64,000 nt of DNA from an uncultured Candidatus Binatia bacterium (GTDB lineage: Bacteria; Desulfobacterota; Binatia; Bin18), in NCBI GenBank assembly GCA_965200355.1, contig OZ241351.1, positions 1,714,426-1,778,425 on the forward strand, written 5' to 3'. The notes under the pieces were generated by a model that saw only the letters and a list, made by a program, of their open reading frames with translations, was not told where the DNA came from and made no database searches. Shown piece after piece: positions 6,959-62,979 of the stretch (its first letter is position 1; each line of letters starts with the position of its first letter). Both the position numbers and the translations under genes were made by a program.

Positions 6959-7362
6959 AAACGACCAGCGATGTCATCCAAGCGGCCAGTGTCCACCTGG
7001 CAACGCTCACCGGCCATGTTTTCGACCTCCTCACCATTGCCAAACCACGCTCTCCCGAAGCCGCTGTCAACTTGGCGAAAGATGCCTTCTCCTATCAACC
7101 GACGCCAGAATATCAGGCCAAACTTCGAGAACTAATTGCGAGGTATCCGTACCGCCTGGACACAAATTTTGCCAAGATCAATAGAATCAACCAGGCCGAG
7201 ATTGCCGCATTCAAGCATAAGGTGCTCAACGCTGAGCACCACGGAAAAACAATACGAGCATGGGCGCGGCTCCTGGGACGGGGGAACGAAACCGAGCTTC
7301 AAAAAGCACTTGAGGACAACGTAGACATCAGAGCAGCGGATTCTGAAGACAGCGCTCAATAA
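6955..7362 (+). CDS. hypothetical protein (135 aa), translationally coupled to the XRE gene
   Basis: ATGA overlap with the upstream stop. No recognisable domain. Confidence 0.45.
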   Translation: MKTTSDVIQAASVHLATLTGHVFDLLTIAKPRSPEAAVNLAKDAFSYQPTPEYQAKLRELIARYPYRLDTNFAKINRINQAEIAAFKHKVLNAEHHGKTIRAWARLLGRGNETELQKALEDNVDIRAADSEDSAQ

Positions 7363-12969: not shown

Positions 12970-14564
12970 ATCGGCATAGCGCCCGATATGCTCTTGGCTC
13001 TCTCAGTCATTTCAGCCGGGATATTGAAATCGCCGGCGCTGGTCTTGATCTGTCGCGTATTGCTCATGCCTCCCGTGAACACGTCGCCGTATGCTGAGGG
13101 GGTCATAATCGAATCGCAGAGATAGACGGGCAATTCGACGGTATCAGCATGACGCAGCAAATCGCGGAGGGCCATCAGGTAGTTCGTCCGGGCGGCCATG
13201 ACCGCCAGCGGATTGAGGTCGAAACCAATAATGTTGCGCAGAATTTTCCGCAGTAGTTCGTCTTCGCCAAAGCCACAGGCGTAGCGGTGCTCGTCATACC
13301 ATGTTTTGACACGGTTCAGGGCCATGACGAGAAAGCTGCCGGAACCGCAGGCGGGGTCGAGCAGGCGTTTGTCCGGGTTGCCGTCGTAGCCGAGTTCGTC
13401 AAGGACCAGCTCGGCCAGCCAGTCGGGCGTGTAGTACTCGCCCAAGTCGTGCCGGACGGACTTGGGAAAAAGTTGCTGGTAGAGCTGTTTAAGCAAATCG
13501 CGCGATTCTGCCGGGTCAACACTGAGGGTGGTCGAATCGAACCGGTCCAGCGACCGGGTGAGGCCACGGACGGCCTGGGCGCAGTCCTCGTTCCAGGCGT
13601 CCAGATACCAGGAGAAGAGGTCGCCTTCGAGAAAATTGCGAATGCCGAGCTGTGACCAGATGCCCCCTTGTTCGAGATTGCGCAGTTCCTCCCGTAATTT
13701 GGCCGGAGTTGGCGCAGAAACGAGTCTTTTGAGGGCTGAGGTTCCAAGAGGAGAAAAGGCCGAGACAATCTCGGCGGCCAGCATTTTCATGAACAGGGCG
13801 TAGTAGGTATGAACGGCAAACAGGAGGGCAGACGGAGAGGGGTGAGACACCTGATAGTGATCGGCCAGTTGCCTGACTTTGGGGTTCTGACCATGAATGT
13901 CATAGCCACACACTTCACCGAAAAGAATCTGCCATTGACGGAAGAACGTCTGCGCCTTCGGGCTGTCTGTCGTGCGGATGAGGTCATGGAGAAGCCGCAC
14001 GCCGTGCTGTGCGCTCTGGGCCTCGGAGCCGAAAGAATCCGTCAGATTCTCGGGGGTAAAGGAAAGGCCCCGCGCGCCCAGGGAGACGAGCGCCCGCAGC
14101 AGGCGTTGGACCGTATACGGCGTGACAGGTTGGGCGTCCTCAGCCTCAAGCTTTGCCCCGCGGGTGCGGACAAAGACCATGCGCGCGCCGTCGCACCCAA
14201 TCCCGAGAATGCGTTCCATGCCGACGTGCTCTTCTGCCTGTAAGTCTCGGAAGCGGCTCTTGATCTGGGTAACGACGGCCTTGAATCCCCGGGCGTTTCT
14301 CTGCTCCGTGATTCTGTCCGACCCCTTGGGGTCTTTGTACTCAATGACCACCCCGCCGTATTTGGAATCAATGCGCCCGCCGGCAAGACCGTATTCATGC
14401 CGGCCCTGGACAGTCAGCCCCGCTTTCTTGATGAACTCGTCAATGAGCTTATTGCACTCGTGGCGAATATCTTCCTCTGAGCCGGCCCATGCGACCGCCT
14501 GCACCATCTGATCGGCCATGAGCTTGGCGTGGTGCGCAATCAAGGCTTCGAGATTCTGACTCAT
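12966..14564 (-). CDS. Type IIG restriction-modification enzyme, N-terminal portion (PD-ExK nuclease motif plus MTase motif I)
   Basis: GGRIDSKYGGVVIEYK (D...EYK nuclease motif) near the N-terminus. ...LLDPACGSGSFLV (AdoMet motif I). The ORF stops about 180 aa before the NPPW found in the next ORF. Confidence 0.6.
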   Translation of the reverse strand: MSQNLEALIAHHAKLMADQMVQAVAWAGSEEDIRHECNKLIDEFIKKAGLTVQGRHEYGLAGGRIDSKYGGVVIEYKDPKGSDRITEQRNARGFKAVVTQIKSRFRDLQAEEHVGMERILGIGCDGARMVFVRTRGAKLEAEDAQPVTPYTVQRLLRALVSLGARGLSFTPENLTDSFGSEAQSAQHGVRLLHDLIRTTDSPKAQTFFRQWQILFGEVCGYDIHGQNPKVRQLADHYQVSHPSPSALLFAVHTYYALFMKMLAAEIVSAFSPLGTSALKRLVSAPTPAKLREELRNLEQGGIWSQLGIRNFLEGDLFSWYLDAWNEDCAQAVRGLTRSLDRFDSTTLSVDPAESRDLLKQLYQQLFPKSVRHDLGEYYTPDWLAELVLDELGYDGNPDKRLLDPACGSGSFLVMALNRVKTWYDEHRYACGFGEDELLRKILRNIIGFDLNPLAVMAARTNYLMALRDLLRHADTVELPVYLCDSIMTPSAYGDVFTGGMSNTRQIKTSAGDFNIPAEMTERAKSISGAMPM

Positions 14565-32534: not shown

Positions 32535-33659
32535 TTATGGAAAATCCACGCGTAGCTCTTGTCCGAGCGGTCCAGCTATTTGGATCGTTTTATTGATTAT
32601 CTCTCTAATCGTACCAGCGGGGAAATTTTTCCAAAGCCACCATCCTGGAACGACCTCAGTAGAGTGTTTTTCGTTGTATTCGGCGTCTTTTTTAGGATGA
32701 AGCTGGTATCGGTCTCGTGACAAATATCTTATTTCTCGCCCCCGTATCTGATCAGCAAATCTTTCCAGGAACGTCGAATCTTCTTGGTGAAGAAGCTGAA
32801 GAACCTTCTTCAGTGCCCCAATAGCTTTGTCTTCTTGATAAGGTGTCCCTTTGAAAACAATACTGAAGGTTCCAGTTTTTCGGGTACGCGCCTCTTGTGT
32901 GTTCGGTGTTTGTGGGGACGGGTTTTGTGGCAGACTTCGCTCAGACGGGCCAAGCTCTTTAGGGGTGCTTTTCCGTATTGACTCCAGAAATTCCTCACAG
33001 GCGGCAGGTTCCGGTTTGTAGCCGCAGAGATCGGCAACCTTCTCCGCCAACATTTCTAGCAGCAAAGAATCCGGTTCTTCTAACAAGGCATTCCAGGCTT
33101 TCGGGAAAGTTCTCTCTATTTTGCGGTCCTGCACAACATTCTGGTAGTCAGACTTTGCAGCCTCCAGGGCTTCCCCGGAACAGACTCTCTCATAACTGAG
33201 ATACCGATTCAGTCTTTCAACCACCTCATCCGTATCTCTCTCCAATATGTCGAGTTTATACACTCGGCGCTCGTCATAACGCCCTTGTTCACCTGGCAAG
33301 TAGAATATCCATTCTTGTCCGTCGGTCAGGACGGCCATTGGAACTCCAACGTGAAAGACGTATTCAAATAACTGGCGGTCGGCTGCCTCGGATAAGTTTC
33401 CTACTTTTTTCACCTCAACAAAGACACTCGGCTGCCTGGGAGAATGACACAGCGCAAAATCAACCCGGCGATTCTCTACCGAGTATTCAGGAATAACGAG
33501 AGAGGTATCAAAAATGTCCCAGTCTAACCCCTGTAAGATACGACGAAGGATGTCCTGAGAAACCTCTGCCTCCGATTCGAATTTCTTCTGCTGCAAGTCG
33601 GCTTTAACTCTTTCTATCTGTTCCGTGAGAGGCATAGTGCTCCTTCCTCTATCATTCAT
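32535..33659 (-). CDS. hypothetical protein with N-terminal HSDR_N-type (type I restriction enzyme R N-terminal-like, PD-ExK) domain
   Basis: ...SEAEVSQDILRRILQGLDWDI...ENRRVDFALC...PSVFVEVKKVG. The C-terminal ~200 aa are unknown. Region GC is clearly lower than flanks. Alternative start at 33635 (MPLTEQ). Confidence 0.5.
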   Translation of the reverse strand: MNDRGRSTMPLTEQIERVKADLQQKKFESEAEVSQDILRRILQGLDWDIFDTSLVIPEYSVENRRVDFALCHSPRQPSVFVEVKKVGNLSEAADRQLFEYVFHVGVPMAVLTDGQEWIFYLPGEQGRYDERRVYKLDILERDTDEVVERLNRYLSYERVCSGEALEAAKSDYQNVVQDRKIERTFPKAWNALLEEPDSLLLEMLAEKVADLCGYKPEPAACEEFLESIRKSTPKELGPSERSLPQNPSPQTPNTQEARTRKTGTFSIVFKGTPYQEDKAIGALKKVLQLLHQEDSTFLERFADQIRGREIRYLSRDRYQLHPKKDAEYNEKHSTEVVPGWWLWKNFPAGTIREIINKTIQIAGPLGQELRVDFP

Positions 33660-47286: not shown

Positions 47287-48380
47287 AAGAATTTAATCAC
47301 GCTGCGGGCCACCCCACCGCCCTCTTTTAAGAGGTCGTAGGCTTCGTTGACCTGTTCGAGCGCGAAGGTCTTGGAGACCAACTCATCGATCTTGATCTTT
47401 TTATCCACATACATGTCGATCAAGCGGGGCATGTCGATACGGGGACGGGTCGAACCGTAGTACGAGCCCTGAATCCGCTTTTCCATCAAACAAAAGATGT
47501 TCGGATTGAGTGAGATGCGCGCGCCGTCGGGCGACACGCCGACCACCGTACACAACCCGCCCCGGCCCGTCATCTTGAAGGCCAGCTCGATGGTCTTGGC
47601 CGTGCTGATGACCTCAAAGGCATAGTCAACACCCCGCCCGTGGGTAAGCTCCATCACCGCCTTGAAGGCGTCGTCCTGGCCGGGATTGATGGTATGGGTC
47701 GCGCCGAAAGTCTTGGCAAACTCCAGTTTCGAGTCGAGCAGATCGACCGCAATCACCTGCCGCGCCCCAGCCAGCGCGCAGCCCTGAATAACGTTGAGGC
47801 CCACGCCCCCACACCCAATGACCACCGTAGAGGAGCCGGGCTGGACATTCGCGGTGTTGACCGCCGCCCCCACCCCGGTCATGGTCCCGCAGCCCACAAA
47901 ACACGCCCGGTCGAGCGGAACGTCGTCTCGAATTTTGATGGCGCAGCTCTCGTGGACAACGGTCTCTTCGGCAAACGAGGCCGTGTACGCAAAATGAAAT
48001 ATCTCCTCATTGTTCTTGCGCAGGCGTGTCGTCCCGTCCACGAGCGTGCCGAGTGCTCTGGGCCGGGTTTCACACAGATGCGGTTTGCCCTGCGTACAAT
48101 AATGGCAGGTGCCGCACACCGGGTTGAACGACAGCACAACATGGTCGCCCTCTTTGACCGAGGTCACGCCAGCGCCCACCTCGACTACCACCCCAGCCCC
48201 CTCATGGCCCAGCACCATGGGCAGCGGCATCCGCATATCGCCGGTCATGACGTGCAAGTCACTATGACAGGCCCCGTTGGCCGCCACCTTGACCTTGACC
48301 TCGCCGGCCTTGGGCGGGTCAAGATGTAAATCTTCAATCACGAGTGGTTTGTTCGGCTCATATAATACCGCAGCTTTCAT
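47283..48380 (-). CDS. zinc-dependent alcohol dehydrogenase (class III / formaldehyde dehydrogenase-like)
   Basis: ATG 48380 after ggaggg. ...GHEGAGVVVEVG... and C..C..C..C structural-Zn motif. The longer 447-aa ORF is an upstream over-extension. Confidence 0.8.
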   Translation of the reverse strand: MKAAVLYEPNKPLVIEDLHLDPPKAGEVKVKVAANGACHSDLHVMTGDMRMPLPMVLGHEGAGVVVEVGAGVTSVKEGDHVVLSFNPVCGTCHYCTQGKPHLCETRPRALGTLVDGTTRLRKNNEEIFHFAYTASFAEETVVHESCAIKIRDDVPLDRACFVGCGTMTGVGAAVNTANVQPGSSTVVIGCGGVGLNVIQGCALAGARQVIAVDLLDSKLEFAKTFGATHTINPGQDDAFKAVMELTHGRGVDYAFEVISTAKTIELAFKMTGRGGLCTVVGVSPDGARISLNPNIFCLMEKRIQGSYYGSTRPRIDMPRLIDMYVDKKIKIDELVSKTFALEQVNEAYDLLKEGGGVARSVIKFF

Positions 48381-48529
48381 GGCCCTTCCCTCCTGTCGAT
48401 ACAAGCTCTCCCGTAGGAACTTGGAATGATAAACGGCTCGACGGGCGCTGTCCATCCGATTCCCACCAGGGCCGGCCAGGCATCGGGCCGGACTTTCACT
48501 GCTCCGACAAAGCAAGTTATAGTGCCGGG

Positions 48530-50765
48530 ATGCAAATCCATCGGAGTAGATCTGAAGGCCGGCTGGCCGGGCTGGTATTGCTGTCCGCCGTGATGCTGGC
48601 GCCGACGCTGGCGCTGGCTCAGCCACAGCACACGCTTGAAGATATGACGGTCACGGCCCGCAAGCAGGAGCAACGCGCCTTTGACGTGCCGCTGTCGCTG
48701 TCCGTGCTGCAAGACGAGGGGCTCAGTCGGCTGCGCTCGTCGGGTATGGACATCCGCTTTCTGAACAACCGGGTGCCCAGCTTACAGGCCGAGTCGTCCT
48801 TTGGGCGCTTCTTTCCCCGCTTCTATATTCGTGGCCTGGGCAATACCGACTTTGATATGAATGCCTCCCAGCCGGTGTCGGTGATGTATGACGGCATTGT
48901 GTTGGAAAACGCCCAACTCAAGAGTACCCCTGTTTTTGATGTCGAGCGCATTGAGGTGTTGCGTGGCCCGCAGGGGACGCTGTTTGGGCGCAACACCACG
49001 GCCGGCTTCATCAAGATCGAATCGGCCCGCCCGACCTGGGATGTCGAGGGATATGGCCGCTTGTCCTACGGGCGTTTCAACAGTGTCAATTTCGAGGGAG
49101 CCCTGTCCGGGCCGTTGATCCCGTCCATACTGGCGGCGCGCGCCTCGGTGTTGGTCCAGCGGCGGAGCCACTGGGTGGACAACACCTACACTGGTGAGGA
49201 CGGCGCTCGGGGCGGCTATCGTGATGTGGCTGGCCGGCTTCAATTTTTATTGACGCCGGTGGAAAACTTTTCTGGGCGGTTCAAGGTGCATATCCGCGAC
49301 TTTGACGGCTCGCCCCGCCTCTTCCGGGCCAATGTGCTGAAGCTGGGCCATACCGACTTGGTGTCGGGCTTCCGCCGCGACAAAATCGGCCATGACGCGG
49401 ACAGTGACGCGCGGGTCAGCGGCCACGGCTTTGCCTCCGAATTGCACTACACGCTTGGGCCGGTCGAGCTCATCTCGCTGACCGGCGGAGAATGGCTCGA
49501 CGGCCTTTCGCGCGGTGATGTGGACGGCGGCTATGGCGCGGTCTTTCATCCGCCCAGCGGGCCGGGCCTGATTCCGTTTCCCGCCGAGACCGCGGACAGG
49601 ATTCCGTCCCTGCGCCAGCTCAGCCAGGAGTTTCGGCTGGAACACACGGCCTGGCAGCGGCTGAACTGGCGGGGGGGGGTCTTCTATCTCCACGAGGAAC
49701 TCGACATGTTCGGCCTCAACTACGATACCCTGGCCGGGAATATCGAGAATGGGCGTATCCAGCATGAGCCAACGGACCGAGGCGTGGGCCGAGTTTACCG
49801 CGGCCACCTTCGCCCTGACCGAGAACATCGAAATCGCCGCCGGGGTGCGCGTCTCCGAGGACGATAAGGAGTACCGTATCGAACGGCTCCGGTCGCCCAT
49901 TGGCGCGGGTCCGCTGGGCCCGCTTCGCGAGGCTCCGCGCGACTTGGTGCCGAGTTGGGACCTGAGCCTGCGCTATCAGCTCCGGCCCGGCATCCAGCCC
50001 TATGTACGGCTGGCCAGCAGCTTTCGTGCTCCCAGCATTCAGGGCCGGCTGTTGTTCAGCGACGAGGTGACGGTAGCGGACACCGAAGACATTCTCTCGG
50101 TTGAGCTTGGTCTGAAGCTGCGGTTGTGGCAGCGGCGCCTGCATCTTGATCTGGCGGCGTATCATTTCTGGATGAACGATCAACAACTGACCGCGGGGAG
50201 CGGGGTGGACAACATCAACCGCCTGCTGAACGCCGACCGCACCATCGGCCGGGGCATTGAGGCCGAAGGAGCCGTGGCCCTGGGCTACGGCCTGCACCTG
50301 ACGGCCGGCCTGAGTTATAACTATACCCGGCTGGACGATGCGGGTCTGTTCGTTCAGCCGTGCGGCGCGGCCTGTACGGTCCTTGACCCACCCGGCCCGG
50401 TTCCGGGCACGGTCTCCATTGACGGCAACCGTTTGCCTCAAGCCCCGCGCTGGATCGCCAGTCTGAACCTGAGCTATACGCGGGTGCTCGCCAGCGGCGC
50501 GGCGCTCATTCTTGCGACCGACTGGGCGTATCGCAGCCGCATCAACTTTTTTCTGTACGAGTCACGCGAGTTCCGCGACAATCATCTGCTTGAGGGTGGC
50601 CTGCGCCTGACTTGGTTGTCGGCTTCGGGCGGGTTGGAAGTGGCCGCCTTTGGCCGAAATATCCTGAACAATGTCTCGCCCACGGGCGGTATTGACTTCA
50701 ACAACCTGACCGGTTTTCTCAACCAGCCACCCGTCTGGGGTATCGAAGCAACGCTGCGCTTGTGA
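48530..50765 (+). CDS. TonB-dependent receptor; single-base frameshift near 49765-49770 splits it into two ORFs
   Basis: Signal peptide. Plug domain (...VLRGPQGTLFGRNTTAG). C-terminal beta-barrel in a second frame (49749-50765) ending ...GIEATLRL. Confidence 0.7.
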
Positions 50766-52103: not shown

Positions 52104-52880
52104 GTGTCCCTCTTTTCGTTGGTCTGTATGAGTCGTGAATATCGCCTGCTCCTGTGCTCCCTGGTCGGCCTGTCGGTGCTGGCCTGGATTGTCACTGTCC
52201 AGCATATGGGCGGAGCCGGGTATGCCCTGGTGATGGGCAGTATGACTATGGGGATGCCGTTCTCAGTCATCAATATGCTGCTGTATATCGGCCTGTGGGG
52301 GGTCATGATGGTGGCCATGATGTTTCCCGCTATCGTGCCGGTGGCCGGGATATTCGCCTCCCTGTCCAGACGGCAGCGCGCACAACAGCTACCGTCCACG
52401 CCGGTATGGGTCTTTGTGTCGGGCTATGCGGTGCTGTGGACCCTCACCGGCGGCGTTGGCTATGCCGCGGATTTGACGATGCAGACCTTGCCAACCCATT
52501 TCCCCCTGCTGAAGACCCATCATCTGCTTATCAGCGGTGGCCTGCTGATGGTGGCCGGCCTCTATCAACTGACCCCGCTCAAAGACCGCTGCTTGGCGCA
52601 CTGCCGCTCGCCTTTTGCGTTTCTGATGGCACACTGGCGCAACGGCTATCGGGGCGCTTTTCAGATGGGGATGTCCCACGGGCTGTATTGTCTCGGGTGT
52701 TGCTGGAGTCTGATGATGGTCATGTTTATCATGGGGACGATGAATCTGGTGTGGATGGGCGTGCTCAGTATTGCCATCGTGCTTGAAAAGAGTCTGTCTT
52801 GCGGCCCGACCTTCGGCCGCGGGGTTGGGGCCGCCTTGATCGCGCTGGGGATTGCGGTGAGTATGGGCTTGCTGACGTAG
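52104..52880 (+). CDS. DUF2182-family predicted metal-binding membrane protein (start possibly 52128)
   Basis: Six TM helices; conserved H/C residues (...CLAHCRSP..., ...CLGCCWSLMM...). Confidence 0.6.
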   Translation: MSLFSLVCMSREYRLLLCSLVGLSVLAWIVTVQHMGGAGYALVMGSMTMGMPFSVINMLLYIGLWGVMMVAMMFPAIVPVAGIFASLSRRQRAQQLPSTPVWVFVSGYAVLWTLTGGVGYAADLTMQTLPTHFPLLKTHHLLISGGLLMVAGLYQLTPLKDRCLAHCRSPFAFLMAHWRNGYRGAFQMGMSHGLYCLGCCWSLMMVMFIMGTMNLVWMGVLSIAIVLEKSLSCGPTFGRGVGAALIALGIAVSMGLLT

Positions 52881-52918
52881 GGTAAAATCGAAAAGCCACC
52901 CGCAGAACGAGGACCCGC

Positions 52919-53374
52919 ATGATGCTCGACATTGACCCACAGGCCAAACACGGCGTCCAACTCGACCCGGTGACCGTGACGGCTGAGGATATTCGGTCCT
53001 TTGCCGAGGCGATGGGCGACCTGAACCCGCTGTATACGGACGTTGAGGCCGCGCGTCGCGCCGGCTACCAGGACGTGATCGCCCCCCCACTGTTTTGTAT
53101 GCGGATGCGCGGCGGGAAACTCTTGCCCGAGGTGGCGCTGCCGGCCGGCTTTATGAGTCTGCACGCGGGACAGGAGATCGAATTCCACGCCGAGATTATT
53201 GCCGGACAGACCTACACCATGACCGCGCGGGTGGCCGATGTGTATGAAAAAACAGGCCGGAGTGGTCCCATGCAGATCATTGTCCGGGAGTCAACGATTA
53301 CGGATGCCGCGGGGCGGACTATCGTGACGGTCCGCGAGCGCCAAATCGTGCGCTCACCACAAAAGAAAATCTAG
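52919..53374 (+). CDS. MaoC-like (hot-dog fold) dehydratase
   Basis: ...DLNPLYTDVEAARRAGYQDVIAPPLF... Confidence 0.7.
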   Translation: MMLDIDPQAKHGVQLDPVTVTAEDIRSFAEAMGDLNPLYTDVEAARRAGYQDVIAPPLFCMRMRGGKLLPEVALPAGFMSLHAGQEIEFHAEIIAGQTYTMTARVADVYEKTGRSGPMQIIVRESTITDAAGRTIVTVRERQIVRSPQKKI

Positions 53375-53383
53375 CCAGAGCGT

Positions 53384-54358
53384 ATGCGTATCACCTTAGA
53401 CCCCTGGGGGGGCGATTACGGCAGCCAGATTACGACGCCACAGGCGGTCGATGCCGACCATCCCTCCGCCCAAGTGACCGGGCGGCAGGTCGAGGACGGT
53501 CCCTGGCAGCCCCGAACACCAACGCCTGAGCAGATGCCGAAGCGGACCGCGGTGATTGACGGTGTGATGCGGGTTGATGCGCCGGCGGTGCTGGGTGACG
53601 AAGAAACCCGCTTCCTGGCCCTGTTCGGCTCGTATGCGGCTGGAGCGGTCGTGATTGACCGCCGGGTTGAGATTATCGAGGAACAGCTCGACCGCCTGTT
53701 TATTGTCGGCGGTGGGCAATCCGGCCACGATGTGCTGGTGGCGGCCGGGACGGGGGGAAAAATTCCCCTGCGCTACCGGCGCATGAGCGTGTCTGACCTG
53801 ACCCCGGACTCCTTACGAGAGAGCCTGATGACGGCCATGCGACGGACGGAGAACGACCTCGCCCGTAAGCTGTCTGGAGAGGAGCGGCTGGTGCTTGCGG
53901 ACGGGAATCTGACCTTTCTAGGCGACAGCTCTTCTGTGGTCGGGGTCATCAAAACGATCCAGCGCATGTATCTTGCGCCGCCGCAGGCAAAAATCCTGGA
54001 GCGGCTTCAGCCGGGGGAACGGACGCCGCTGTTTGAGTTTTCTGGCAGCAGTCGGCGCAAAGGTTTTGAGGTCTTCACCTGCTATCTACGCCTGATGAAC
54101 CCCCGCCCGATTGAGCATCCCTTTACCGGCCTGGCGCGGCTAGAAGTGAAAGCCGGGCTGGGTATTCAGAAGGCGACCGCGCTGTTGGACCAAGCCGCCA
54201 GGGTAGTCTCGACGCTGGCCTCCCGCGCGCCCAAAGACCCGCGCGCGCCCCAGAATTTGATTCCCATCGGTGGACTGGAGCGGCGGCTGCGGCACCGGCT
54301 GGGCGACCCCAGGCTGGTCCGGCGCTGTATTGAGAAAGCCCTGCTGAACCAGGTATAG
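53384..54358 (+). CDS. nurA: NurA-like 5'-3' nuclease (RNase-H-like fold)
   Basis: ...AVIDGVMRV (DGS-type motif at about residue 58); ...LVLADGNLTFLGD second acidic motif. Sits immediately upstream of herA-like, the canonical partner. Confidence 0.5.
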   Translation: MRITLDPWGGDYGSQITTPQAVDADHPSAQVTGRQVEDGPWQPRTPTPEQMPKRTAVIDGVMRVDAPAVLGDEETRFLALFGSYAAGAVVIDRRVEIIEEQLDRLFIVGGGQSGHDVLVAAGTGGKIPLRYRRMSVSDLTPDSLRESLMTAMRRTENDLARKLSGEERLVLADGNLTFLGDSSSVVGVIKTIQRMYLAPPQAKILERLQPGERTPLFEFSGSSRRKGFEVFTCYLRLMNPRPIEHPFTGLARLEVKAGLGIQKATALLDQAARVVSTLASRAPKDPRAPQNLIPIGGLERRLRHRLGDPRLVRRCIEKALLNQV

Positions 54359-54395
54359 CCAAACGGCCAGGATAGCTAAACGGAAAGGAGAAGGC

Positions 54396-56096
54396 ATGGG
54401 GAGAGTCATCGGCACGCAAGATGCCACGCCGCTCGAATTCTGGGTGTGGCTCGAAGAAGACGAAGCGGTCCAGGTTGACGATGCCATCGTGGTCGAGACC
54501 GACTCGCCACACGGACCGCTGAAATTATTCGGCATGGTCAATATCGTCCGGGCGCGCCATCAGGGTTCGACCTTTGACTCCGACGTGGTTGAAGCGGAGC
54601 GCGGCCTGCCGGTTGAACTGTCTATCGCCGCCCACGTCAAAGTGACCCGCCTGATGCCCGAGTATTATTATCCGCCCATGCCGGGCGACCCGGTGCGCAC
54701 GGTCACGGATGAGGAATTTGACCAAGCCCTGTTTATGGACACTATGGAGCGCAAGTTTCCGCTGGGTCTGTCCCTGTCCGGCAAGGAAGTCGTGTCCGGC
54801 AATCTTGATTTTCTGAATGGCCGCAAGGGCGCGCATATGAATATCAGCGGCGTGTCCGGCATTGCCACCAAGACGACCTATTCCACTTTTCTGTTGCACA
54901 GCCTATTGCACTGCGGGCAGTTGACCGACGCGAAAAATACCCACGCGATTATCTTCAATGTCAAAGGCGAAGACCTGCTGTTCCTGGACAAGGCAAGTAA
55001 CGCGCTCGGTCTCGAAGACGAGGCCCTCTACGCGCAAATGGACTTGCCGGCCGCACCGTTTGATTCGGTCCAATTCTATGTCCCGCCCACGGAAAACGCG
55101 CGGGGTCCGATCATGCCCAAGGTCGGCGCTCGCAAGGCCGATGAAGTCACGCCGTATTTTTGGACGGTGCGGGATTTTTGCCGGCAGCGTTTGCTGCGCT
55201 ATCTGTTTGCCGAAGGTGGGGAAGAAGCCTCGCTCCTCTCAACCCTGATTTATCAGGTCGAGCGTAAGTTGCTGGAAGCCGCGGAAGCCGCGGACAAGGA
55301 AGGGCCCGGACCGGGTGTATTTCTGCAAAGTGAGCCAGACGGCGAAGCCGCACAGCAGGAAACCGCGCTGCCTTCGACCGAGATTCGAGATTTTTCGGCC
55401 CTCCTCCGAACGATGGAGGCCCTGGCCGGTGCAACCAACCATTCGGCCGGCACGGTCGGCGCGTTTATGCGGCGTCTGTACGGAGCGGAAGAGAAGGTTT
55501 CGTATATTATCCGCGACCCGGTCGATTCCGACCCGACCCGCCATGCGATCAACTGGCGCAATAAGCAGGTGACGGTGGTCAGCCTGAGCGGCCTGTACGA
55601 AGTGGGCAAGAGCTTTGTGGTCGGCTCGGTCCTGCAACAGATTCAGGCCGAAAAAGAAGCCACCGGCTCAGCCGAACCCCTGTGCTTTATTGTGGTGGAT
55701 GAGCTGAATCGCTACGCCCCCCGTGACGGCTGGTCGCCCATTCGAGAGCGGCTGCTTGAAATTGCCGAACGGGGGCGGTCCAGCGGCACGATTCTGATTG
55801 GCGCGCAGCAAACCGCCTCCGAAGTAGAGCGGCGGATTGTCGCCAACCCGGCTTTTCGGATTGTCGGACGCCTGGACGCGGCGGAAGCCGAGCGGGCCGA
55901 ATATGGCTTTCTGCCCTCCACCCTGCGCCAACGGGCTGCGATTTTAACACCCGGACGCATGATCGTGTCTCAGCCCGATATTCCGACCCCCGTCCCCCTG
56001 CTGTTTCCCCGTCCGGCCTGGGCCACCCGGGCGGATGAACAGAAACTGCCGCCCCCTAAACTGAAGTTTCGGCGTGTTAGAGAAAGTGAGTATTAG
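54396..56096 (+). CDS. herA: HerA-like (FtsK/HerA superfamily) hexameric ATPase/helicase with atypical P-loop
   Basis: HAS-barrel-like N-terminus. P-loop region reads NISGVSGIATKTTYS. Walker B ...LCFIVVDELNRY. Arginine finger region present. Confidence 0.55.
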   Translation: MGRVIGTQDATPLEFWVWLEEDEAVQVDDAIVVETDSPHGPLKLFGMVNIVRARHQGSTFDSDVVEAERGLPVELSIAAHVKVTRLMPEYYYPPMPGDPVRTVTDEEFDQALFMDTMERKFPLGLSLSGKEVVSGNLDFLNGRKGAHMNISGVSGIATKTTYSTFLLHSLLHCGQLTDAKNTHAIIFNVKGEDLLFLDKASNALGLEDEALYAQMDLPAAPFDSVQFYVPPTENARGPIMPKVGARKADEVTPYFWTVRDFCRQRLLRYLFAEGGEEASLLSTLIYQVERKLLEAAEAADKEGPGPGVFLQSEPDGEAAQQETALPSTEIRDFSALLRTMEALAGATNHSAGTVGAFMRRLYGAEEKVSYIIRDPVDSDPTRHAINWRNKQVTVVSLSGLYEVGKSFVVGSVLQQIQAEKEATGSAEPLCFIVVDELNRYAPRDGWSPIRERLLEIAERGRSSGTILIGAQQTASEVERRIVANPAFRIVGRLDAAEAERAEYGFLPSTLRQRAAILTPGRMIVSQPDIPTPVPLLFPRPAWATRADEQKLPPPKLKFRRVRESEY

Positions 56097-56106
56097 GGGG
56101 GCGGGT

Positions 56107-57285
56107 ATGAGATTCCTCCACACCTCAGACTGGCATGTGGGCCGGACCATTCGTAATCGCTCCCGGCTGGACGAGCACCGGGCCGTGTTTGCCGAGATCG
56201 TTGCGCTTGCCAAGCGCGAGCAGGTTGACGCCGTTCTGGTGACAGGGGACATCTTTCACGAGCGCCGCCCGCCTCTGGCCGCCGAGGAATTGGTAGCGCA
56301 TACCCTGGCCCAACTCGCTCGCGCCAATATCGTCTCGGTCGTCATTCCCGGTAATCACGATGATGCGGCCCGCCTGCGCACCCTGAAACCGCTGGGCGAT
56401 TTGCTCCAGGTGCATATGATGACCGACCTGAGTCCAGACCTTTCGGACCTGATTGTTCCCATTCCCCAGCGGACCGGAGGGGAAAAGGCGCTGGTAGGCT
56501 GTTTGCCCTATCTGCACCCTCACCGGGTTCTCACCACGGCTGAAGGCAGCGACAAAAGTGAGAGTGAACGCCTCAGTACGTATCGGAGCGAAGTGCAGGA
56601 AACTCTGCGCGCCCTGGAGAAGGCGATGGAAAAGATGGACAGCAATGCCGTGTCCATCGTACTCGTCCATGCGCATATTGACGGCACGGAGTTTGGCGGA
56701 GGCGAATGGCGCTCCAGCGTCTTCCCCATTGATCCTGGCAGTCTGCCCAGCGGCGTCCATTATGTAGCCCTGGGGCATATGCACCAGCCTCAGAAAGTCG
56801 GCGGGACAGCAGCGAAAGCCTACTACGCCGGCTCGATTCTGCAAATGGATTTCGGCGAGCGGGGGCAACAAAAAAGTGTGTATCTGATTGAAGCCCCGCC
56901 GGGTAAACCGGCAGAGGTTACGCCCATTGCTCTGACTCAAGGCAAAGCCTTACTGCGCCGAACGGGAAGCGCCGAAGAGATATTGTCGCAGGCCGAAGCA
57001 TTCACCAATGCCTGGGTTGAAATCGTCTTAAAGCCGGAAGGCCAAACGTCCGAACTGATTGAGCAAATCCGAGCGTTGCCGGGCGTGGTCTCAGTCCGGT
57101 TTGCAGAGACACAGGCGAACGATTCCGTCGGCGAAGCGGTCCACAATCCGAACAAGCGCCCCCCGGCGGAACTGTTCACCGACTATTATCAGTCAAAACG
57201 CGGCACAGAGCCTGAGCCGCAGCTTGTCGCCCTGTTTGAGCGCTTGTATCAGGAGGTCAGCACCGCCCGGGATGAGCCCGTCTAA
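56107..57285 (+). CDS. sbcD: Mre11/SbcD family double-strand-break repair nuclease
   Basis: MRFLHTSDWHVGR (motif I), VTGDIFHE (II), IPGNHD (III), VLVHAH (IV), GHMHQ (V). RBS agggggg. Confidence 0.9.
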   Translation: MRFLHTSDWHVGRTIRNRSRLDEHRAVFAEIVALAKREQVDAVLVTGDIFHERRPPLAAEELVAHTLAQLARANIVSVVIPGNHDDAARLRTLKPLGDLLQVHMMTDLSPDLSDLIVPIPQRTGGEKALVGCLPYLHPHRVLTTAEGSDKSESERLSTYRSEVQETLRALEKAMEKMDSNAVSIVLVHAHIDGTEFGGGEWRSSVFPIDPGSLPSGVHYVALGHMHQPQKVGGTAAKAYYAGSILQMDFGERGQQKSVYLIEAPPGKPAEVTPIALTQGKALLRRTGSAEEILSQAEAFTNAWVEIVLKPEGQTSELIEQIRALPGVVSVRFAETQANDSVGEAVHNPNKRPPAELFTDYYQSKRGTEPEPQLVALFERLYQEVSTARDEPV

Positions 57286-57311
57286 GTGCAGTCCCCCTCC
57301 CAATTCTCCCC

Positions 57312-60300
57312 ATGCGTCCACAAAAACTCAGCCTCAAAAATTTCATGCCCTTTCGGGTCACAGGCGATCAGGTTCACGCGGTGGACTTTTCGCAACTTGG
57401 CCTCTTCTCCATTACCGGCCCGATGGGGAGCGGGAAATCTGCGCTCGTCGACGCAATGGTCTGGTGCCTGTATGGCCGCACCGCACGCTATGGATTGGAC
57501 TCAAAAGGCGTGATCTCGACCGGTGAGCAGACGTGCGAGGTCGGGCTGGACTTCACCATTGGTGAGCGTTGGTTCCGAGCGGTCCGCCGGACCGGCAAAA
57601 TCACCGAATCCGGTCTCAGCGAACGCGAGGGCGAAGAGTGGATACAGGACACGTCCGGGTCTGCGTCGCTTACCAGGCGGATTGAAGAACTCTTGGGCCT
57701 CGATTTTGACGGCTTCACCAAAACCGTCATCCTCCCCCAGGGACGCTATGCCGAGTTTCTGACCAGCGAGCCAAAAAAACGGCGCGAGTTGTTGGCGAAA
57801 ATCCTGGAACTTGGGGTGTACACTCGGGTGGCTGACCAGGCCAAACTCGTTGCCGTACAGGCCAAAACCAGGGCGGACACCCTGCACGAAACGCTGGCCC
57901 AATACGCCGGCCTGAGTCAGGAGCATATCGCGCTTCAGAAAGAAGAACTTTCCAAACTCGACCAACATATTGAGCAGCTTGCTCAGCGAGAAGCCGGCTT
58001 GCGCCGTGTGGCCCAACACGTCGAGCACATAGCCGGCTTGCGGGGTCGTCTGGCTGAGCTTCAGGAGGAAGTGCAGGAACGTACCCAAGAGAGAGAGCAG
58101 GCCCAAAAGCAGGTCAACGCAGCGAGCGCTCAGGTTGCCGGTCTGACACAGGAATTGGCAAAAATTGGCCAGGAACGGGCAGCGCTGGGATATGATGCGG
58201 CGCGCCACGAGGATGTGAACCGTGCAGTTGGCCATCTCAAGGAATGGGTGCTCGCCCAACAGGAAGCCCAGCGGAAAAATACCGAGCAGACCCGGGTCCG
58301 GGAAGCAGTTGAAGGGCTTGCTCAAAAAATCGAGTCCCACACGCGCCAAGTCGAACAGGCCCGGTCTCGACACCAGTCTTGCGCCGCCAGGTTTGAGCAT
58401 CTCGTTGCCGAAGCCGGCGACGTGGCCACGCTGACGGAAAAGCTCGGAGCCGCAAAACGCTGGAAAAAACTGCACCACGAACAACAGCGCCTCACCGCTC
58501 GGATAGAGACGCTGGGCCAGGACCACACCGCTACGCAACACCGTCTGGACGACCTGAAACAACAGGAAGGGGGGCACGCCCGGACCGTCCGGGCACTGCA
58601 AGACCAACTCGAACGCACCCAGGCAGAGGAACGGCAAAACCGCGAACAGCGGGCCGAAGCTGAGGCTCTGGGGAGAGAACTCCAGGCAGCGCGCACAGCG
58701 GAAAAACGGTCGCAATCCGACTATGAGACTGCCGGTAGCGGGTTGACCCAAGCCGAACAAACGGCCCAGCACAACCGGCAGGCGCTCGCCCAGGCCGAAA
58801 CGCAGGAGCAGGCCGCTCGCAGCGCGCTGGAAGACAGCCAACGCCGGCACGAAGCCGCCCATCTGCGGGAGACGTTGCGCGTCGGCGATATCTGCCCGGT
58901 GTGTCGGGTCATGGTGCGCGAAATTCCTCTTGCTCAAGAAGGCGGGGAGGATTTGAAGACTCTCCAGCAGCAAACCAAACGCGCCTCACTGACGACTCAA
59001 CACCAACGCGCCGAAGCACAAGCAGCAGCCGCCAGGGTTGCCACCTGTCGGGTGAGACTCGAGGCTGCGGATCGGGGGCTGAAAGACCGTGAGCGCGCCA
59101 GACAAGAAGCCCAGGACCGCTTTGTCGCCCGTTTCCCCGGCCATCCGTCTCTTGCTGAAGCGCTCGGGGCGGTACAGACCCGGCACGCAGCGCTGAGCGC
59201 GGCGCTCAAAGACCTGGAAGCGCAAGCGGCCTCTGCCGAGCAGAAAAAAGTGCAACTGTCCCGCCAACGTGAATCCGCGCAACAAGAGGCCGCCAAGCTC
59301 GCCGAGGCGCTACGCGGGACAACCGAAAGGCTGGAGGCTGATACCCGTGAGTTGGATGCGCTCAAAGGCGAGCTGGCGACGTTTCTCGCCACGAGTGGAG
59401 ACCCGGTGCAGAGTGTGGCCCAACGCCGCGCGACGCTGAGGCAGGCCGAGCAACACATGCAGGAAGCGGAGAAAGCCTTGCATCAACTCGAAGGGGCGCG
59501 CAACTCGTTGCACACCGCCCAGGTCCAAAAAAATGGCGACCTCAGATTGCTCGCCGTCGAATACGAGGGTGCGTTACTCCAAGCCGAGCGCGAAGCGCTG
59601 GCCGTGCGCGCCTGCCTTGGTCTGGCAGAAGACGCGGGGTTGCCACAGACTGAAGACCTGGAAAGTGAACGCAAGGTGCTGTCAGGCCGGCAAACCCGCC
59701 ACGCAGACTTGTCACAACGCGAAGAAAAAGTGCGGGTCAAGCGAGACCAGACGGAACAGCAGGCCAAGGAGGCGCAAGCCGACCTTCAAGCCCGAACGGG
59801 AGTGTTAGAAGAATCCCAGCAGAAACAGGGACAGGCTCAGCACCAACTCGAAAAAGAACGGGACCGGCTTCAGGCGGCGATTGTCCAACACCACCTCACT
59901 GACACGGGTGAGGACGGACAGCAGATCAAACCCCAACTGGAAACGGCCCGCGCCCAGATGATGTCTTGCCAAGCCCAACGCGGCCGCTTAGCGGCTGAAC
60001 ACGCCGAGGCCGAACGGCGTTGGCAGGAAAAGGAGCAGGAAGAAGAAAAGCTGCACGCCGCACAGCGTGAAGAGCGTCTGGCCTCGGACCTGCGCAAGCT
60101 GCTGGGCGCAGAATTTACCGACTTCCTGTCGCGTGACGCCATAAAAGCCCTGATGCACGATGCGTCCGCCCACCTGCAACGCCTCACCCGCGGCCGTTAC
60201 GTGTTTGATATTGCGTATCGGGGCCGGGCGATCACGCTCCAGATTATTGACCACGAAGAGCAGCGTCAGGTTCGGCCGACTCATTCGCTATCGGGCGGAG

Positions 60301-60593
60301 AAACGTTTTTAGCCTCGCTCGCCCTCGCCCTCGCCCTGTCGCAGGGGTTTCGCACCATTGCGACCGGGCGGGCCGCCCAGACCTCAACCGAATGCCTGAT
60401 TCTGGATGAAGGGTTCGGGACACTGGACCGGGAAGGCGTGCAGCTGGTGACGGAAGTCCTGCAAGAATTACGGGGCGAAGAAAGACGGATGGTGGGCATT
60501 ATTACCCATGTCGAAGAAGTGGCTGTGGCCATGCCCATGCACCTGGAAGTCCGCAAAGGTGGCAGGACGAGCGAGATTAAGCTATCAGGCTAG
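57312..60593 (+). CDS. sbcC: Rad50/SbcC family ATPase
   Basis: Walker A ITGPMGSGKSALVDAM. Long coiled coil with central zinc hook CPVC. Signature LSGGETFLASLALALAL. Walker B LILDEGFGTLD. H-loop ITHVEE. Confidence 0.9.
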   Translation: MRPQKLSLKNFMPFRVTGDQVHAVDFSQLGLFSITGPMGSGKSALVDAMVWCLYGRTARYGLDSKGVISTGEQTCEVGLDFTIGERWFRAVRRTGKITESGLSEREGEEWIQDTSGSASLTRRIEELLGLDFDGFTKTVILPQGRYAEFLTSEPKKRRELLAKILELGVYTRVADQAKLVAVQAKTRADTLHETLAQYAGLSQEHIALQKEELSKLDQHIEQLAQREAGLRRVAQHVEHIAGLRGRLAELQEEVQERTQEREQAQKQVNAASAQVAGLTQELAKIGQERAALGYDAARHEDVNRAVGHLKEWVLAQQEAQRKNTEQTRVREAVEGLAQKIESHTRQVEQARSRHQSCAARFEHLVAEAGDVATLTEKLGAAKRWKKLHHEQQRLTARIETLGQDHTATQHRLDDLKQQEGGHARTVRALQDQLERTQAEERQNREQRAEAEALGRELQAARTAEKRSQSDYETAGSGLTQAEQTAQHNRQALAQAETQEQAARSALEDSQRRHEAAHLRETLRVGDICPVCRVMVREIPLAQEGGEDLKTLQQQTKRASLTTQHQRAEAQAAAARVATCRVRLEAADRGLKDRERARQEAQDRFVARFPGHPSLAEALGAVQTRHAALSAALKDLEAQAASAEQKKVQLSRQRESAQQEAAKLAEALRGTTERLEADTRELDALKGELATFLATSGDPVQSVAQRRATLRQAEQHMQEAEKALHQLEGARNSLHTAQVQKNGDLRLLAVEYEGALLQAEREALAVRACLGLAEDAGLPQTEDLESERKVLSGRQTRHADLSQREEKVRVKRDQTEQQAKEAQADLQARTGVLEESQQKQGQAQHQLEKERDRLQAAIVQHHLTDTGEDGQQIKPQLETARAQMMSCQAQRGRLAAEHAEAERRWQEKEQEEEKLHAAQREERLASDLRKLLGAEFTDFLSRDAIKALMHDASAHLQRLTRGRYVFDIAYRGRAITLQIIDHEEQRQVRPTHSLSGGETFLASLALALALSQGFRTIATGRAAQTSTECLILDEGFGTLDREGVQLVTEVLQELRGEERRMVGIITHVEEVAVAMPMHLEVRKGGRTSEIKLSG

Positions 60594-60632: not shown

Positions 60633-61502
60633 ATGTCACTGCACTCAGCAACGGTCGGCTCGGTTGGACACCCGTTTGTCAGCGAAATCGACGCGCGGTG
60701 GGTCATGTCATACGCGGCCGGACTCGATGACTATTTACCCTGTTATATGGACACCTGCCGACCGGACGGGATTGTTGCCCATCCCCTTTTTCCGGTCTGT
60801 ATTGAGTGGCCGGTGATGCTCGCCCTGCGAGACCGCGCCCTGCAACGCGCAGAAGCCCTGCGGGGCTTCCATGCCACGCACGACCTGGTGATACACCGTC
60901 TTATCCGGGCGGGCGAAAAGCTGACCACCCAGGCCACCGTGGCCGGCGTTGAACGGCGCAAGCCGGGGGCCTACCAGACCGTCCGTTTTGATACCCGCGA
61001 TGCCGCTGGCCAGCCGGTCTGTTCGACCTGGTACGGCACGCTCTTTCGTGGGGTGCCCGTTGAGGGGGACGATATGCCGGTTGCTGATTTGCCGACGCCA
61101 TTGGCCCCGCTCGATACACAGACCGGAGCGCAGGCGGAAATCCCGGTGTCGATTTCCGCAGGGGCGGCCCATGTCTATACCGAGTGCGCGCGTATCTGGA
61201 ACCCGATTCATACTGACCCGGCGGTGGCCGAGCAGTACGGACTGCCAGGGTTGATCCTGCATGGAACCGCAACCCTGGCGCACGGCATTTCCCGTGTGAT
61301 TGCCCAGGAAACCGACGGTCAGCCAGAGCGGGTCAAGCGGATCAGCGGGCGCTTTGGTGCCATGGTGTTCATGCCGTCGCGCCTGACCGTTCGCGTTGTG
61401 TCACGGCAAGCGGGGGCGGAGGGCGACGTGGTGCGGTTTGAGATACGAACTGCGGAGGGCAAGCCCGCGGTGCGGGACGGGGCCATTGTCCTCGGCTCAT
61501 AA
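60633..61502 (+). CDS. MaoC-family dehydratase, double hot-dog (N- and C-terminal domains)
   Basis: Two hot-dog halves (...HPLFPVCIEW..., ...IWNPIHTDPAVAEQYGLPGLILHG...). Confidence 0.7.
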   Translation: MSLHSATVGSVGHPFVSEIDARWVMSYAAGLDDYLPCYMDTCRPDGIVAHPLFPVCIEWPVMLALRDRALQRAEALRGFHATHDLVIHRLIRAGEKLTTQATVAGVERRKPGAYQTVRFDTRDAAGQPVCSTWYGTLFRGVPVEGDDMPVADLPTPLAPLDTQTGAQAEIPVSISAGAAHVYTECARIWNPIHTDPAVAEQYGLPGLILHGTATLAHGISRVIAQETDGQPERVKRISGRFGAMVFMPSRLTVRVVSRQAGAEGDVVRFEIRTAEGKPAVRDGAIVLGS

Positions 61503-61525
61503 AAGACACGGACAAGGAGGGGCGT

Positions 61526-62533
61526 ATGCAACGCGGACTGATTTTTCCCGGAGGCGGGATGTCGCAGCGCGACATGATGGTGGTCGCCAAAGAAGCCGAA
61601 GCCGCGGGGTTTGATTCTCTGTATGTGACCGAAGCGTGGCGGAGCGCGTTTGTCCCGTTGACCGCGCTCGCCCTGGCAACCGAACGGGTCCGCATTGGTT
61701 CCTATGTGCTGAACGCCTACGGCCGTAGCCCGTTTATTACGGGCATGAGCGCGGTTGATGTGGACGAGCTGTCCGGTGGGCGGCTGCTGCTCGGGGTCGG
61801 CAGCGGCAACCGGCATATTAACGCCGAGTGGCAGGGTATCCCGCATGACAAGCCCTATCAAAAGATGACCGAGTATATTGAGAACCTTCAACACATCGTC
61901 CGTACCCCGGCCGGCTCGCGGGTCGCCTACCAAGGCGACATTCACACTATGGACTGGGTACCGGCAGTGACCCCTATTCGCCCGAGCATTCCCATATACC
62001 TGTCCGCCATTTTTCCGCGCATGGTCCGCGTTGCCGGGCGGGTCGCGGACGGCATCGCCCTGGGCGCGATATTATCCGCGCCGTACGCGCGTGAGGTGAT
62101 TCAACCTGCGGCCCGGAAGTCTGCGGTACAAGCTGACCGCGACCCGCACGCCCTCGGTTTTCTGATGGGTTCGTTTGTCTCGGTCCACGCGGAACGTGAA
62201 GTCGCCCGCCAAGCTGCGCGTGAAGCAATCTGTCGTCTCTTCGCTCCACTGCCGCACCCGTATTACGAGTATATGCTGCGTGAGCAGGGTTTTTCGGCTG
62301 CCGCAGACGCGGCCTTGAAGCACGTCCCGGAGGGCAATATCCAGAAAGCGGCGGAGGCCATGACCGACGAAGTGGTTGATACCGTCACCATCGCCGGAAC
62401 GCCCGAGGAGTGCCGGCGGCGGCTGACTGAGTATGAAGGCGTGGTGGACGAGGTGATTTTTGTGAATGTTTCCTACTCATCGGGGGCCGGCGCCGGCATG
62501 ATGGAGGGATATCGAAAGTTATTGCAGGTGTAG
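61526..62533 (+). CDS. LLM-class flavin-dependent oxidoreductase (possibly F420-dependent)
   Basis: ...AEAAGFDSLYVTEAW...LLLGVGSGN... Luciferase-like TIM barrel. Confidence 0.75.
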   Translation: MQRGLIFPGGGMSQRDMMVVAKEAEAAGFDSLYVTEAWRSAFVPLTALALATERVRIGSYVLNAYGRSPFITGMSAVDVDELSGGRLLLGVGSGNRHINAEWQGIPHDKPYQKMTEYIENLQHIVRTPAGSRVAYQGDIHTMDWVPAVTPIRPSIPIYLSAIFPRMVRVAGRVADGIALGAILSAPYAREVIQPAARKSAVQADRDPHALGFLMGSFVSVHAEREVARQAAREAICRLFAPLPHPYYEYMLREQGFSAAADAALKHVPEGNIQKAAEAMTDEVVDTVTIAGTPEECRRRLTEYEGVVDEVIFVNVSYSSGAGAGMMEGYRKLLQV

Positions 62534-62598
62534 GAGCGATTCACGAACCGCCCCTCCACCAACCCTCACGAGGGCTCTGAGCCTTGTGCCGACACCGG

Positions 62599-62979
62599 CT
62601 ACGCGCTCTTGGCCTTTTTCTCGTCGATAGTGTCGAACACCTGTTTGGCGAGGCGCAGCCCATTGACGCCGACCGGCCAGCCGCCGTAGTGGGCGAGGTG
62701 GATCATGACTTCGTTGATCTTGTCCCGGCTGATGCCGATATTGAGCGCGCCACGAATGTGGACCTTGAGTTCCGGGTCGCGGCCCAACACGGTCAGGGCC
62801 GCCAGAGTAATCAGTGAGCGCTCCTGAATGGCCAAGCCGTCCCGGCCCCAGATATCGCCGAACAGATTTTTGACCGTGATATCCAGAAAATCCTCGTGCA
62901 TACTGCCCGGTCGGGGCTCCACGCCGAAGAGTTCTTTCATCTTTGCCGCACCCTTTTGATAGCGTTCGGAATCTGCCAT
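62599..62979 (-). CDS. carboxymuconolactone decarboxylase family protein (AhpD-like)
   Basis: ...ITLAALTVLGRDPELKVHIRGALNIGISRDKINEVMIHLAHYGGWP... Confidence 0.75.
   Translation of the reverse strand: MADSERYQKGAAKMKELFGVEPRPGSMHEDFLDITVKNLFGDIWGRDGLAIQERSLITLAALTVLGRDPELKVHIRGALNIGISRDKINEVMIHLAHYGGWPVGVNGLRLAKQVFDTIDEKKAKSA

Follow-up and report, generated by a model that had tools for sequence, protein, structure and literature searches.

We analysed a 64,000-nucleotide stretch of DNA from an uncultured soil bacterium, a Candidatus Binatia (contig OZ241351.1, positions 1,714,426 to 1,778,425 of the forward strand; hereafter the window), in which positions 53384-60593 of the + strand are occupied by four intact, co-directional open reading frames (ORFs) that we identify as nurA, herA, sbcD and sbcC, in that order. 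The first, nurA (53384-54358, +), encodes a bacterial-type NurA nuclease of 324 amino acids with an RNase H-like fold, and is followed by herA (54396-56096, +), whose product of 566 amino acids is a bacterial-type HerA hexameric ATPase and double-stranded DNA (dsDNA) translocase. Behind this pair lie sbcD (56107-57285, +), encoding a bacterial SbcD-type nuclease of the Mre11 family (392 amino acids, counted from the ATG at 56107), and sbcC (57312-60593, +), encoding a bacterial SbcC-type, SMC-like ATPase of the Rad50 family (1093 amino acids) with a long coiled coil and a zinc hook.

The longest ORF for sbcD, 56074-57285, starts with GTG and overlaps herA. Since the SbcD homology in the Pfam search begins at residue 12 of this ORF, and since the ATG at 56107 has GGGGGGCGGG, a G-rich Shine-Dalgarno-like stretch, just upstream, the intergenic spacers were measured from the later start, giving 37 nt between nurA and herA, 10 nt between herA and sbcD and 26 nt between sbcD and sbcC. 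These are the co-directional genes with spacers of 10-37 nt that a preliminary description of the locus, made from the letters of the DNA alone, had reported. herA also has a ribosome-binding site upstream, GGAGAAGG. The four genes share a strand and have short spacers, and may be co-transcribed.

The gene identities proposed in the preliminary description were borne out for all four genes. NurA passed the Pfam profile PF09376 at 41 bits (cutoff 21) and matched Deinococcus radiodurans NurA (DrNurA; PDB 7f6d_H) over residues 1-322 with an E-value of 2.8e-25, and Thermotoga TM1739 (1zup) with an E-value of 6e-5. Residues D59, E156, D173 and D285, together with the C-terminal RAPQNL motif (287-292), were invariant across six diverse members of the family, and D59 aligns with the DrNurA aspartate that has been mutated as D53A (PMC4663267).

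HerA obtained no accepted match in either Pfam or NCBIfam, the strongest being a weak similarity to the HAS-barrel (E 0.073). Of the profile checks suggested at the outset for the first two ORFs, only that for NurA succeeded; HerA misses the HerA/DUF87 profiles, yet phmmer aligned its residues 2-548 with D. radiodurans HerA (DrHerA; PDB 7f6d_B, also 7wrw/7wrx) at an E-value of 2.7e-127. With one protein recognised by the NurA profile and the other by its homology to DrHerA, the first two ORFs are not the defence-type DUF87 ATPase pair that had been considered as the other possible outcome. An AlphaFold (AF2) model of HerA, computed from a 30-homologue alignment with a pLDDT of 78.5, is predicted to superpose on 7wrx with a template modelling (TM) score of 0.86 and 42% identity in the fold alignment. 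The layout is that of DrHerA: a HAS-barrel at the N-terminus, the RecA-like ATPase, and a helix bundle as an insertion. Walker A residues K159/T160 correspond to K175/T176 of DrHerA, Walker B residues D435/E436 to D487/E488, and the E192-D193 pair aligns with D220; across 30 family members the catalytic ATPase residues varied little or not at all. The window HerA is thus unmistakably related to the D. radiodurans protein of known structure.

The two proteins share a deviant P-loop (NISG-SG-ATKT), which reads ISGVSGIATKT in the window HerA. Throughout the NurA-linked bacterial HerA family the invariant form is ISG[VI]SG[VI]ATKT[ST], replacing GxxxxGK[ST]. This family draws no match from Pfam or NCBIfam, although over 7800 members reach E<=1e-5 in a 90%-clustered database; the labels that databases give its members are 'ATP-binding protein' or 'hypothetical'. 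Taken as a pair, the window genes resemble those of D. radiodurans (DR_0836/DR_0837; 7F6D, 7WRW, 7WRX) in full-length homology of HerA and NurA, in the P-loop, in the Walker B DE, in the conserved catalytic Asp, in the RAPQNL motif and in the position of nurA immediately upstream of herA. The two genes lie 37 nt apart, and a HerA6-NurA2 complex in which ATPase and nuclease stimulate each other is predicted for their products.

SbcD matched the Pfam families Metallophos and SbcD_C, and the NCBIfam model TIGR00619 at 172 bits, well over its cutoff of 77.65. The preliminary description had credited it with all five phosphoesterase motifs. Four of them were matched by pattern (DWH at 8, GDIFH at 47, GNHD at 82 and GHMH at 223) and the family models were passed, while the single His that makes up motif IV was not pinpointed on its own. 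SbcC scored above the cutoffs of the Pfam families AAA_23, SMC_N and SbcC_Walker_B, and all the motifs previously ascribed to it were found: Walker A (GPMGSGKS at 36), the CPVC hook (528), the LSGG signature (993) and Walker B (LILDE at 1029). Residues A, Q, E, L and R abound in its middle region, where the long coiled coil lies. A strong AT skew (0.359) at window positions 58001-60000 is due to the purine-rich sense strand that encodes this coiled coil, with its many A, Q, E and R residues. The top NCBIfam model for SbcC was TIGR00618 (sbcc), at 231 bits and under its cutoff of 478.5, and all equivalog models fell far under theirs; the protein is therefore a divergent SbcC, yet one nearest to bacterial SbcC.

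The cluster had been described as an archaeal-type operon, and as to gene content this is accurate, since the same four families are linked in archaea. The protein lineages, however, are bacterial. SbcD scored 172 bits on the bacterial sbcd model against 38-62 bits on archaeal Mre11 models, SbcC reached 231 bits on the bacterial sbcc model against at most 95 bits on Rad50 models, and the archaeal Mre11/Rad50 equivalog models gave 38-95 bits where their cutoffs stand at 434-1087. Among PDB structures SbcD ranked E. coli SbcD (102 bits) above Thermotoga maritima Mre11 (86) and Pyrococcus furiosus Mre11 (55), and the top match of SbcC was likewise E. coli SbcC. E. coli SbcCD (6S6V and others) is hence the closest structure for both proteins, with the motifs and the CxxC hook kept, although the similarity is moderate (about 100 bits). 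When the PDB was searched with HerA and NurA family profiles, only Deinococcus structures plus the Thermotoga NurA were retrieved; archaeal HerA (4D2I) and the archaeal NurA structures were not, even at E<=1. In the comparison with the HerA model, archaeal 4D2I and T. kodakarensis 9X1L reached predicted TM scores of 0.57 and 0.50 at 13-16% identity, and by this modelled fold archaeal HerA would tie with the antiphage proteins Sir2-HerA and DUF4297-HerA (12-17% identity), all of them far behind DrHerA. Identity between bacterial and archaeal NurA-HerA has been put at below 20% (PMC9960219). All four proteins, then, are bacterial in type, HerA and NurA as members of the Deinococcus-type bacterial clade.

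The relation to the archaeal operon is therefore one of composition. That operon has the order herA-mre11-rad50-nurA and was reportedly described by Constantinesco et al. in 2004. The window shares with its Sulfolobus and Pyrococcus versions the four linked families, the proposed division of labour and the HerA fold, and differs from them in the low HerA identity given above, in having bacterial-type SbcD and SbcC in place of Mre11 and Rad50, and in gene order, nurA-herA-sbcD-sbcC against the archaeal one, to which an actinobacterial variant of the cluster conforms. In E. coli, sbcDC is not known to sit beside nurA-herA. In the bacterial structures NurA also dimerises differently, and the interface between NurA and HerA is unlike the archaeal one (PMC9960219).

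Conservation of the cluster was surveyed with a single HerA protein query against a genome collection, a scan that returned 34 loci from close Binatia-like relatives only. HerA was 74-90% identical in these loci, nearly all of which were titled Candidatus Binatia metagenome-assembled genomes (MAGs). All four genes were present in the same order and orientation in 34 of 34, that is, in every locus extending far enough, which answers the call in the preliminary description for a survey of gene order in related genomes. In the closest loci all proteins were full-length, with identities of about 88% for HerA, 87% for NurA (83-89% in most), 83% for SbcD and 73% for SbcC. The MaoC-like and luciferase-like monooxygenase (LLM) genes that flank the cluster in the window were kept in the nearest Binatia loci and lost in more distant ones, where the four genes stayed together. 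In Binatia the cluster is chromosomal, most likely inherited vertically, and surrounded by metabolic genes in a core-genome setting that is conserved; the adjacency of the four genes is not a matter of chance, as all 34 related genome loci and most distant relatives keep it. Five loci of this set (L008, L016, L026, L029 and L034) show Binatia-like synteny with HerA identities of 74-88% and yet bear the record title 'uncultured Enterobacteriaceae bacterium' or 'Thermodesulfobacteriota bacterium'; such titles on Binatia-like contigs probably reflect wrong or outdated MAG taxonomy.

More widely, an alignment of five HerA sequences, used to query metagenomes, retrieved 80 loci at 44-79% identity, 70 of which, with at least 600 nt downstream of herA, could be evaluated. 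sbcD lay directly downstream of herA in 63 of the 70. All four genes were seen in 43 loci, 26 in the order of the window and 17 in the actinobacterial order, herA-sbcD-sbcC-nurA. The linked four-gene state is typical of this HerA family, and loci with the pair alone are a minority in this sample. The preliminary statement that HerA-NurA is usually not fused with sbcCD consequently has to be given up, given the linkage in 34/34 genome loci and 63/70 metagenome loci, in several phyla, and in Oceanithermus profundus as discussed below. The family as a whole comprises 304 clusters at 50% identity scoring E<=1e-30, and HerA is about 50% identical between phyla.

For the wider taxonomy of these relatives we relied on plasmid records, on the labels of MAGs and on the names of clusters. 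The order nurA-herA-sbcD-sbcC recurs in an Acidobacteria-labelled MAG, where the genes overlap and the flanks are unrelated, and on a conjugative plasmid of the cyanobacterium Sphaerospermopsis kisseleviana. The order herA-sbcD-sbcC-nurA, which is that of the actinobacterial clade, is found in Nonomuraea gerenzanensis (locus L038, 7001-13375) and on a linear plasmid of Streptomyces sp. BB1-1-1 (L039, 6878-14447), and a Coprothermobacterota MAG (L121, 1446-8746) has sbcD-sbcC-nurA-herA. Euzebya and Deinococcus pimensis, judging from cluster names, also carry a HerA of this family. Across these three gene orders the sbcD-sbcC pair is never split, and the order tracks the HerA clade, the pattern expected for a module inherited as a unit. 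When the flanking ORFs of 85 loci were clustered, no fifth family recurred beside the four, and extra flanking-ORF clusters that might have been partners were rejected as antisense ORF artefacts of high-GC DNA.

Some of these loci merit separate comment. In certain herA-sbcD-sbcC-nurA-type loci, 1.4-2.3 kb separate sbcC from nurA (L080, 13382-15607; L094, 13395-14764; L083, 8020-10307). The genes inside the L080 and L094 gaps were rejected as parts of the module, being on the opposite strand and encoding a DUF1707 (SHOCT-like) protein in both, and also PhoX in L080. The PLSDB entry 'Nonomuraea gerenzanensis plasmid I' (NZ_LT559118.1) is 11.85 Mb long with only 10 annotated features, and is evidently a chromosome, not a plasmid. 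On the Streptomyces linear plasmid the region beside the four genes (L039, 1-6313) contains TIGR02680, TIGR02678 and DUF2397 genes, which we take to be Wadjet-like, and an ImmA/IrrE metallopeptidase gene, a defence-island-like setting unlike that in Binatia. The phage collection held only two weak HerA matches, one of them in Marinitoga camini virus 1 (L123, 3879-6587), a temperate virus of Thermotogae with an annotated nurA-like and herA pair, no sbcCD, and a HerA 33% identical to that of the window.

The linkage is not without precedent. In Oceanithermus profundus, sbcD and sbcC lie downstream of nurA-hepA, an arrangement read as an archaeal-like architecture (Blesa et al. 2017, Genes 8:130, PMC5448004). 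By this published description its architecture is that of the window, the phylum being Deinococcota instead of Binatia, whereas in Thermus nurA-herA stands without the sbcD-sbcC that the Binatia cluster and most of its relatives have behind it (PMC5448004). Blesa et al. held that sbcDC had been recruited secondarily, in a single genus (PMC5448004); here the linkage is the common state of this HerA family, as the 63 of 70 metagenome loci indicate. Experimental papers limit bacterial NurA-HerA to a few bacteria such as Deinococcus-Thermus (PMC4663267; PMC9960219; PMC12977600), and its link to sbcCD has been left open (PMC4663267). In the literature searched, the bacterial four-gene linkage was mentioned only by Blesa et al. 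2017, and an earlier comparative-genomic mention is possible. The window locus is thus an ordinary instance of an under-described but known module, noted already in Oceanithermus. What the locus and its relatives add is a HerA family spread over several phyla, invisible to Pfam and NCBIfam and usually linked to sbcDC, and in this pattern, which the experimental literature has not absorbed, the window is one data point.

The protein identities, the intact catalytic motifs and the repeated linkage conserved across bacterial phyla lead us to read the four-gene cluster as a jointly acting DNA-end processing module, in which bacterial NurA-HerA and SbcCD work on the same DNA ends; we give this reading a probability of roughly 0.7. 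A linkage that survives changes of gene order and full turnover of the flanks across phyla is strong genomic-context evidence for a partnership of Mre11-Rad50-type and HerA-NurA-type enzymes (MR-HN) in bacteria. On a scheme whose steps are all taken from studied homologues, SbcCD would bind a double-strand, hairpin or protein-blocked end and clip it in an ATP-dependent manner. The HerA hexamer would then thread the duplex through its central pore into the NurA dimer on the HAS-barrel face, where the strands would be split and the 5' strand degraded during translocation, leaving a 3' tail for the loading of RecA. Translocation-coupled digestion of the 5' strand has been described for D. radiodurans NurA-HerA (PMC9960219), and archaeal Mre11 interacts with HerA (PMC2288612).

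We infer the physical or functional coupling of SbcCD with HerA-NurA, the co-transcription of the genes and the role in recombinational repair. Several points weigh against joint end processing. About 10% of the related metagenome loci have nurA-herA without sbcCD, and sbcD-sbcC is presumably missing downstream of the D. radiodurans pair as well. Such pair-only loci, including those of Deinococcus and Thermus, mean that SbcCD is not obligatory for NurA-HerA. Scans of the window recognised no promoter or terminator that would delimit an operon, and the cluster is packed between MaoC-like genes. Deletion of nurA-herA in D. radiodurans improves tolerance of mitomycin C (MMC) and UV, and the authors call the role of the pair uncertain (PMC9960219). 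Finally, a 2026 study of archaeal (T. kodakarensis) HerA-NurA found that both strands are cut, doubted resection and proposed antiviral degradation of dsDNA (PMC12977600). The physiological purpose of the module, repair or degradation of foreign DNA, is less certain than the joint action.

Other explanations of the cluster were weighed against joint end processing. The preliminary description implied that the Binatia bacterium had recently acquired an archaeal herA-mre11-rad50-nurA operon by horizontal transfer, a view to which the identical gene content lends some colour, as does a literature that treats bacterial NurA-HerA as an archaeal transfer confined to few bacteria (PMC5448004; PMC12977600). 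Every one of the four proteins is of bacterial type, however, the archaeal HerA and NurA structures are missed by the family profiles at E<=1 with 13-16% identity in the fold alignment, the cluster does not stand out from the rest of the window in GC content (0.59-0.63), it is syntenic across 34 related genomes, and the family is deep and broad in Bacteria, with its 304 clusters in several phyla. A recent archaeal transfer was rejected on these grounds, and we regard it as extremely improbable. A mere neighbourhood of genes that do not work together, in which, for example, HerA would pump or segregate DNA while SbcCD would remove hairpins, with a transcription unit shared with metabolic genes, would suit the tight packing of the cluster among unrelated MaoC and LLM genes, the apparent co-transcription of nurA-hepA with a malic enzyme gene in Thermus (PMC5448004) and the lineages that keep the pair without sbcCD. 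Against this, the four-family linkage outlives three gene orders and complete turnover of the flanks across phyla with no other family recurring, and so we hold fortuitous adjacency to be very unlikely.

A system that destroys plasmid or phage DNA, SbcCD and HerA-NurA cutting both strands of linear or unprotected invading dsDNA in a RecBCD-like defence and not in repair, also seems unlikely to us, though it is the main rival. Nuclease-paired HerA-family ATPases are proven antiphage systems, and their predicted fold similarity to the window HerA equals that of archaeal HerA; compared with Sir2-HerA (Nezha) and DUF4297-HerA, the window protein has in common the HerA fold (predicted TM 0.5-0.59) and the principle of coupling a nuclease or effector to a ring ATPase. 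It differs from them in its 12-17% identity, in having NurA and not Sir2 or DUF4297 as partner, and in its core-genome location in Binatia. An antiviral HerA-NurA has been proposed in the T. kodakarensis study (PMC12977600), Blackwood et al. speculated on protection against extrachromosomal elements, and the deletion phenotypes in D. radiodurans are ill-suited to a simple repair role (PMC9960219). Copies on a conjugative cyanobacterial plasmid, and on the Streptomyces linear plasmid beside TIGR02680/TIGR02678/DUF2397 and ImmA/IrrE genes, point the same way. In Binatia, however, the cluster sits in a conserved neighbourhood of core metabolic genes and in no variable island, with full-length genes and HerA at 74-90% identity over the 34 loci, and HerA is unusually well conserved between phyla, as one would sooner expect of housekeeping machinery than of defence genes, which evolve fast. 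The family is nearly absent from phage genomes. No single PADLOC v2 defence-system model was matched: the similarities (mad8 at 24.7 bits, LmuB at 108 bits on the SbcC head) were of a generic ATPase, SMC or metallophosphatase kind, with none for NurA, and filing the cluster as a defence system was rejected because they were only generic.

Going further than joint end processing, the four-gene set could be the ancient default of bacterial NurA-HerA, with the Deinococcus and Thermus pairs reduced from it, and could form a physically coupled MR-HN machine, a third bacterial route of long-range end resection or of end destruction, widespread among lineages, beside RecBCD/AddAB/AdnAB and RecJ-RecQ, and possibly the main one in groups such as Binatia. 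This proposal is tentative and we rather doubt it, but if true it would overturn the view of bacterial NurA-HerA as an archaea-derived curiosity of Deinococcus-Thermus. Carriers of all four genes are better experimental models than Deinococcus for deciding between repair and the degradation of foreign DNA.

The cluster lies among tightly spaced, unrelated co-directional genes (52104-53374 and 60633-62533, +), and the metabolic flanks named in the preliminary description were confirmed. Upstream, a MaoC/HadA-like gene (52919-53374, +) ends 9 nt before nurA, with a PpoB2 copper chaperone gene also on that side; downstream, a MaoC-like gene (60633-61502, +) begins 39 nt after sbcC and is followed by an F420-type LLM gene (61526-62533, +). 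Past the cluster, the + strand has its first terminator-like hairpin at 62597-62614. Transcription may run on beyond the four genes as one unit, as with the malic enzyme-nurA-hepA unit proposed in Thermus.

The rest of the window is ordinary chromosome, where many metabolic genes accompany those for topoisomerase I, arginyl-tRNA synthetase, a UvrD-like helicase and GidA; scanning it for tRNA genes and Rfam families, like the remainder of the window, returned zero matches. Three patches of lower GC content (0.535-0.58, against about 0.61 elsewhere), at 7328-8215, 11299-14564 and 32535-33659, all on the - strand, encode restriction-modification-like genes, namely an N6_N4 methylase, an Eco57I-like gene beside an N6_Mtase gene, and an HSDR_N-like protein, and are probably small horizontally acquired islands. 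A TonB-dependent receptor (48344-50765, +) is divided between overlapping ORFs, one (48344-49867) holding the Plug domain and the other (49749-50765) the beta-barrel, which suggests a frameshift due either to a pseudogene or to an assembly error.

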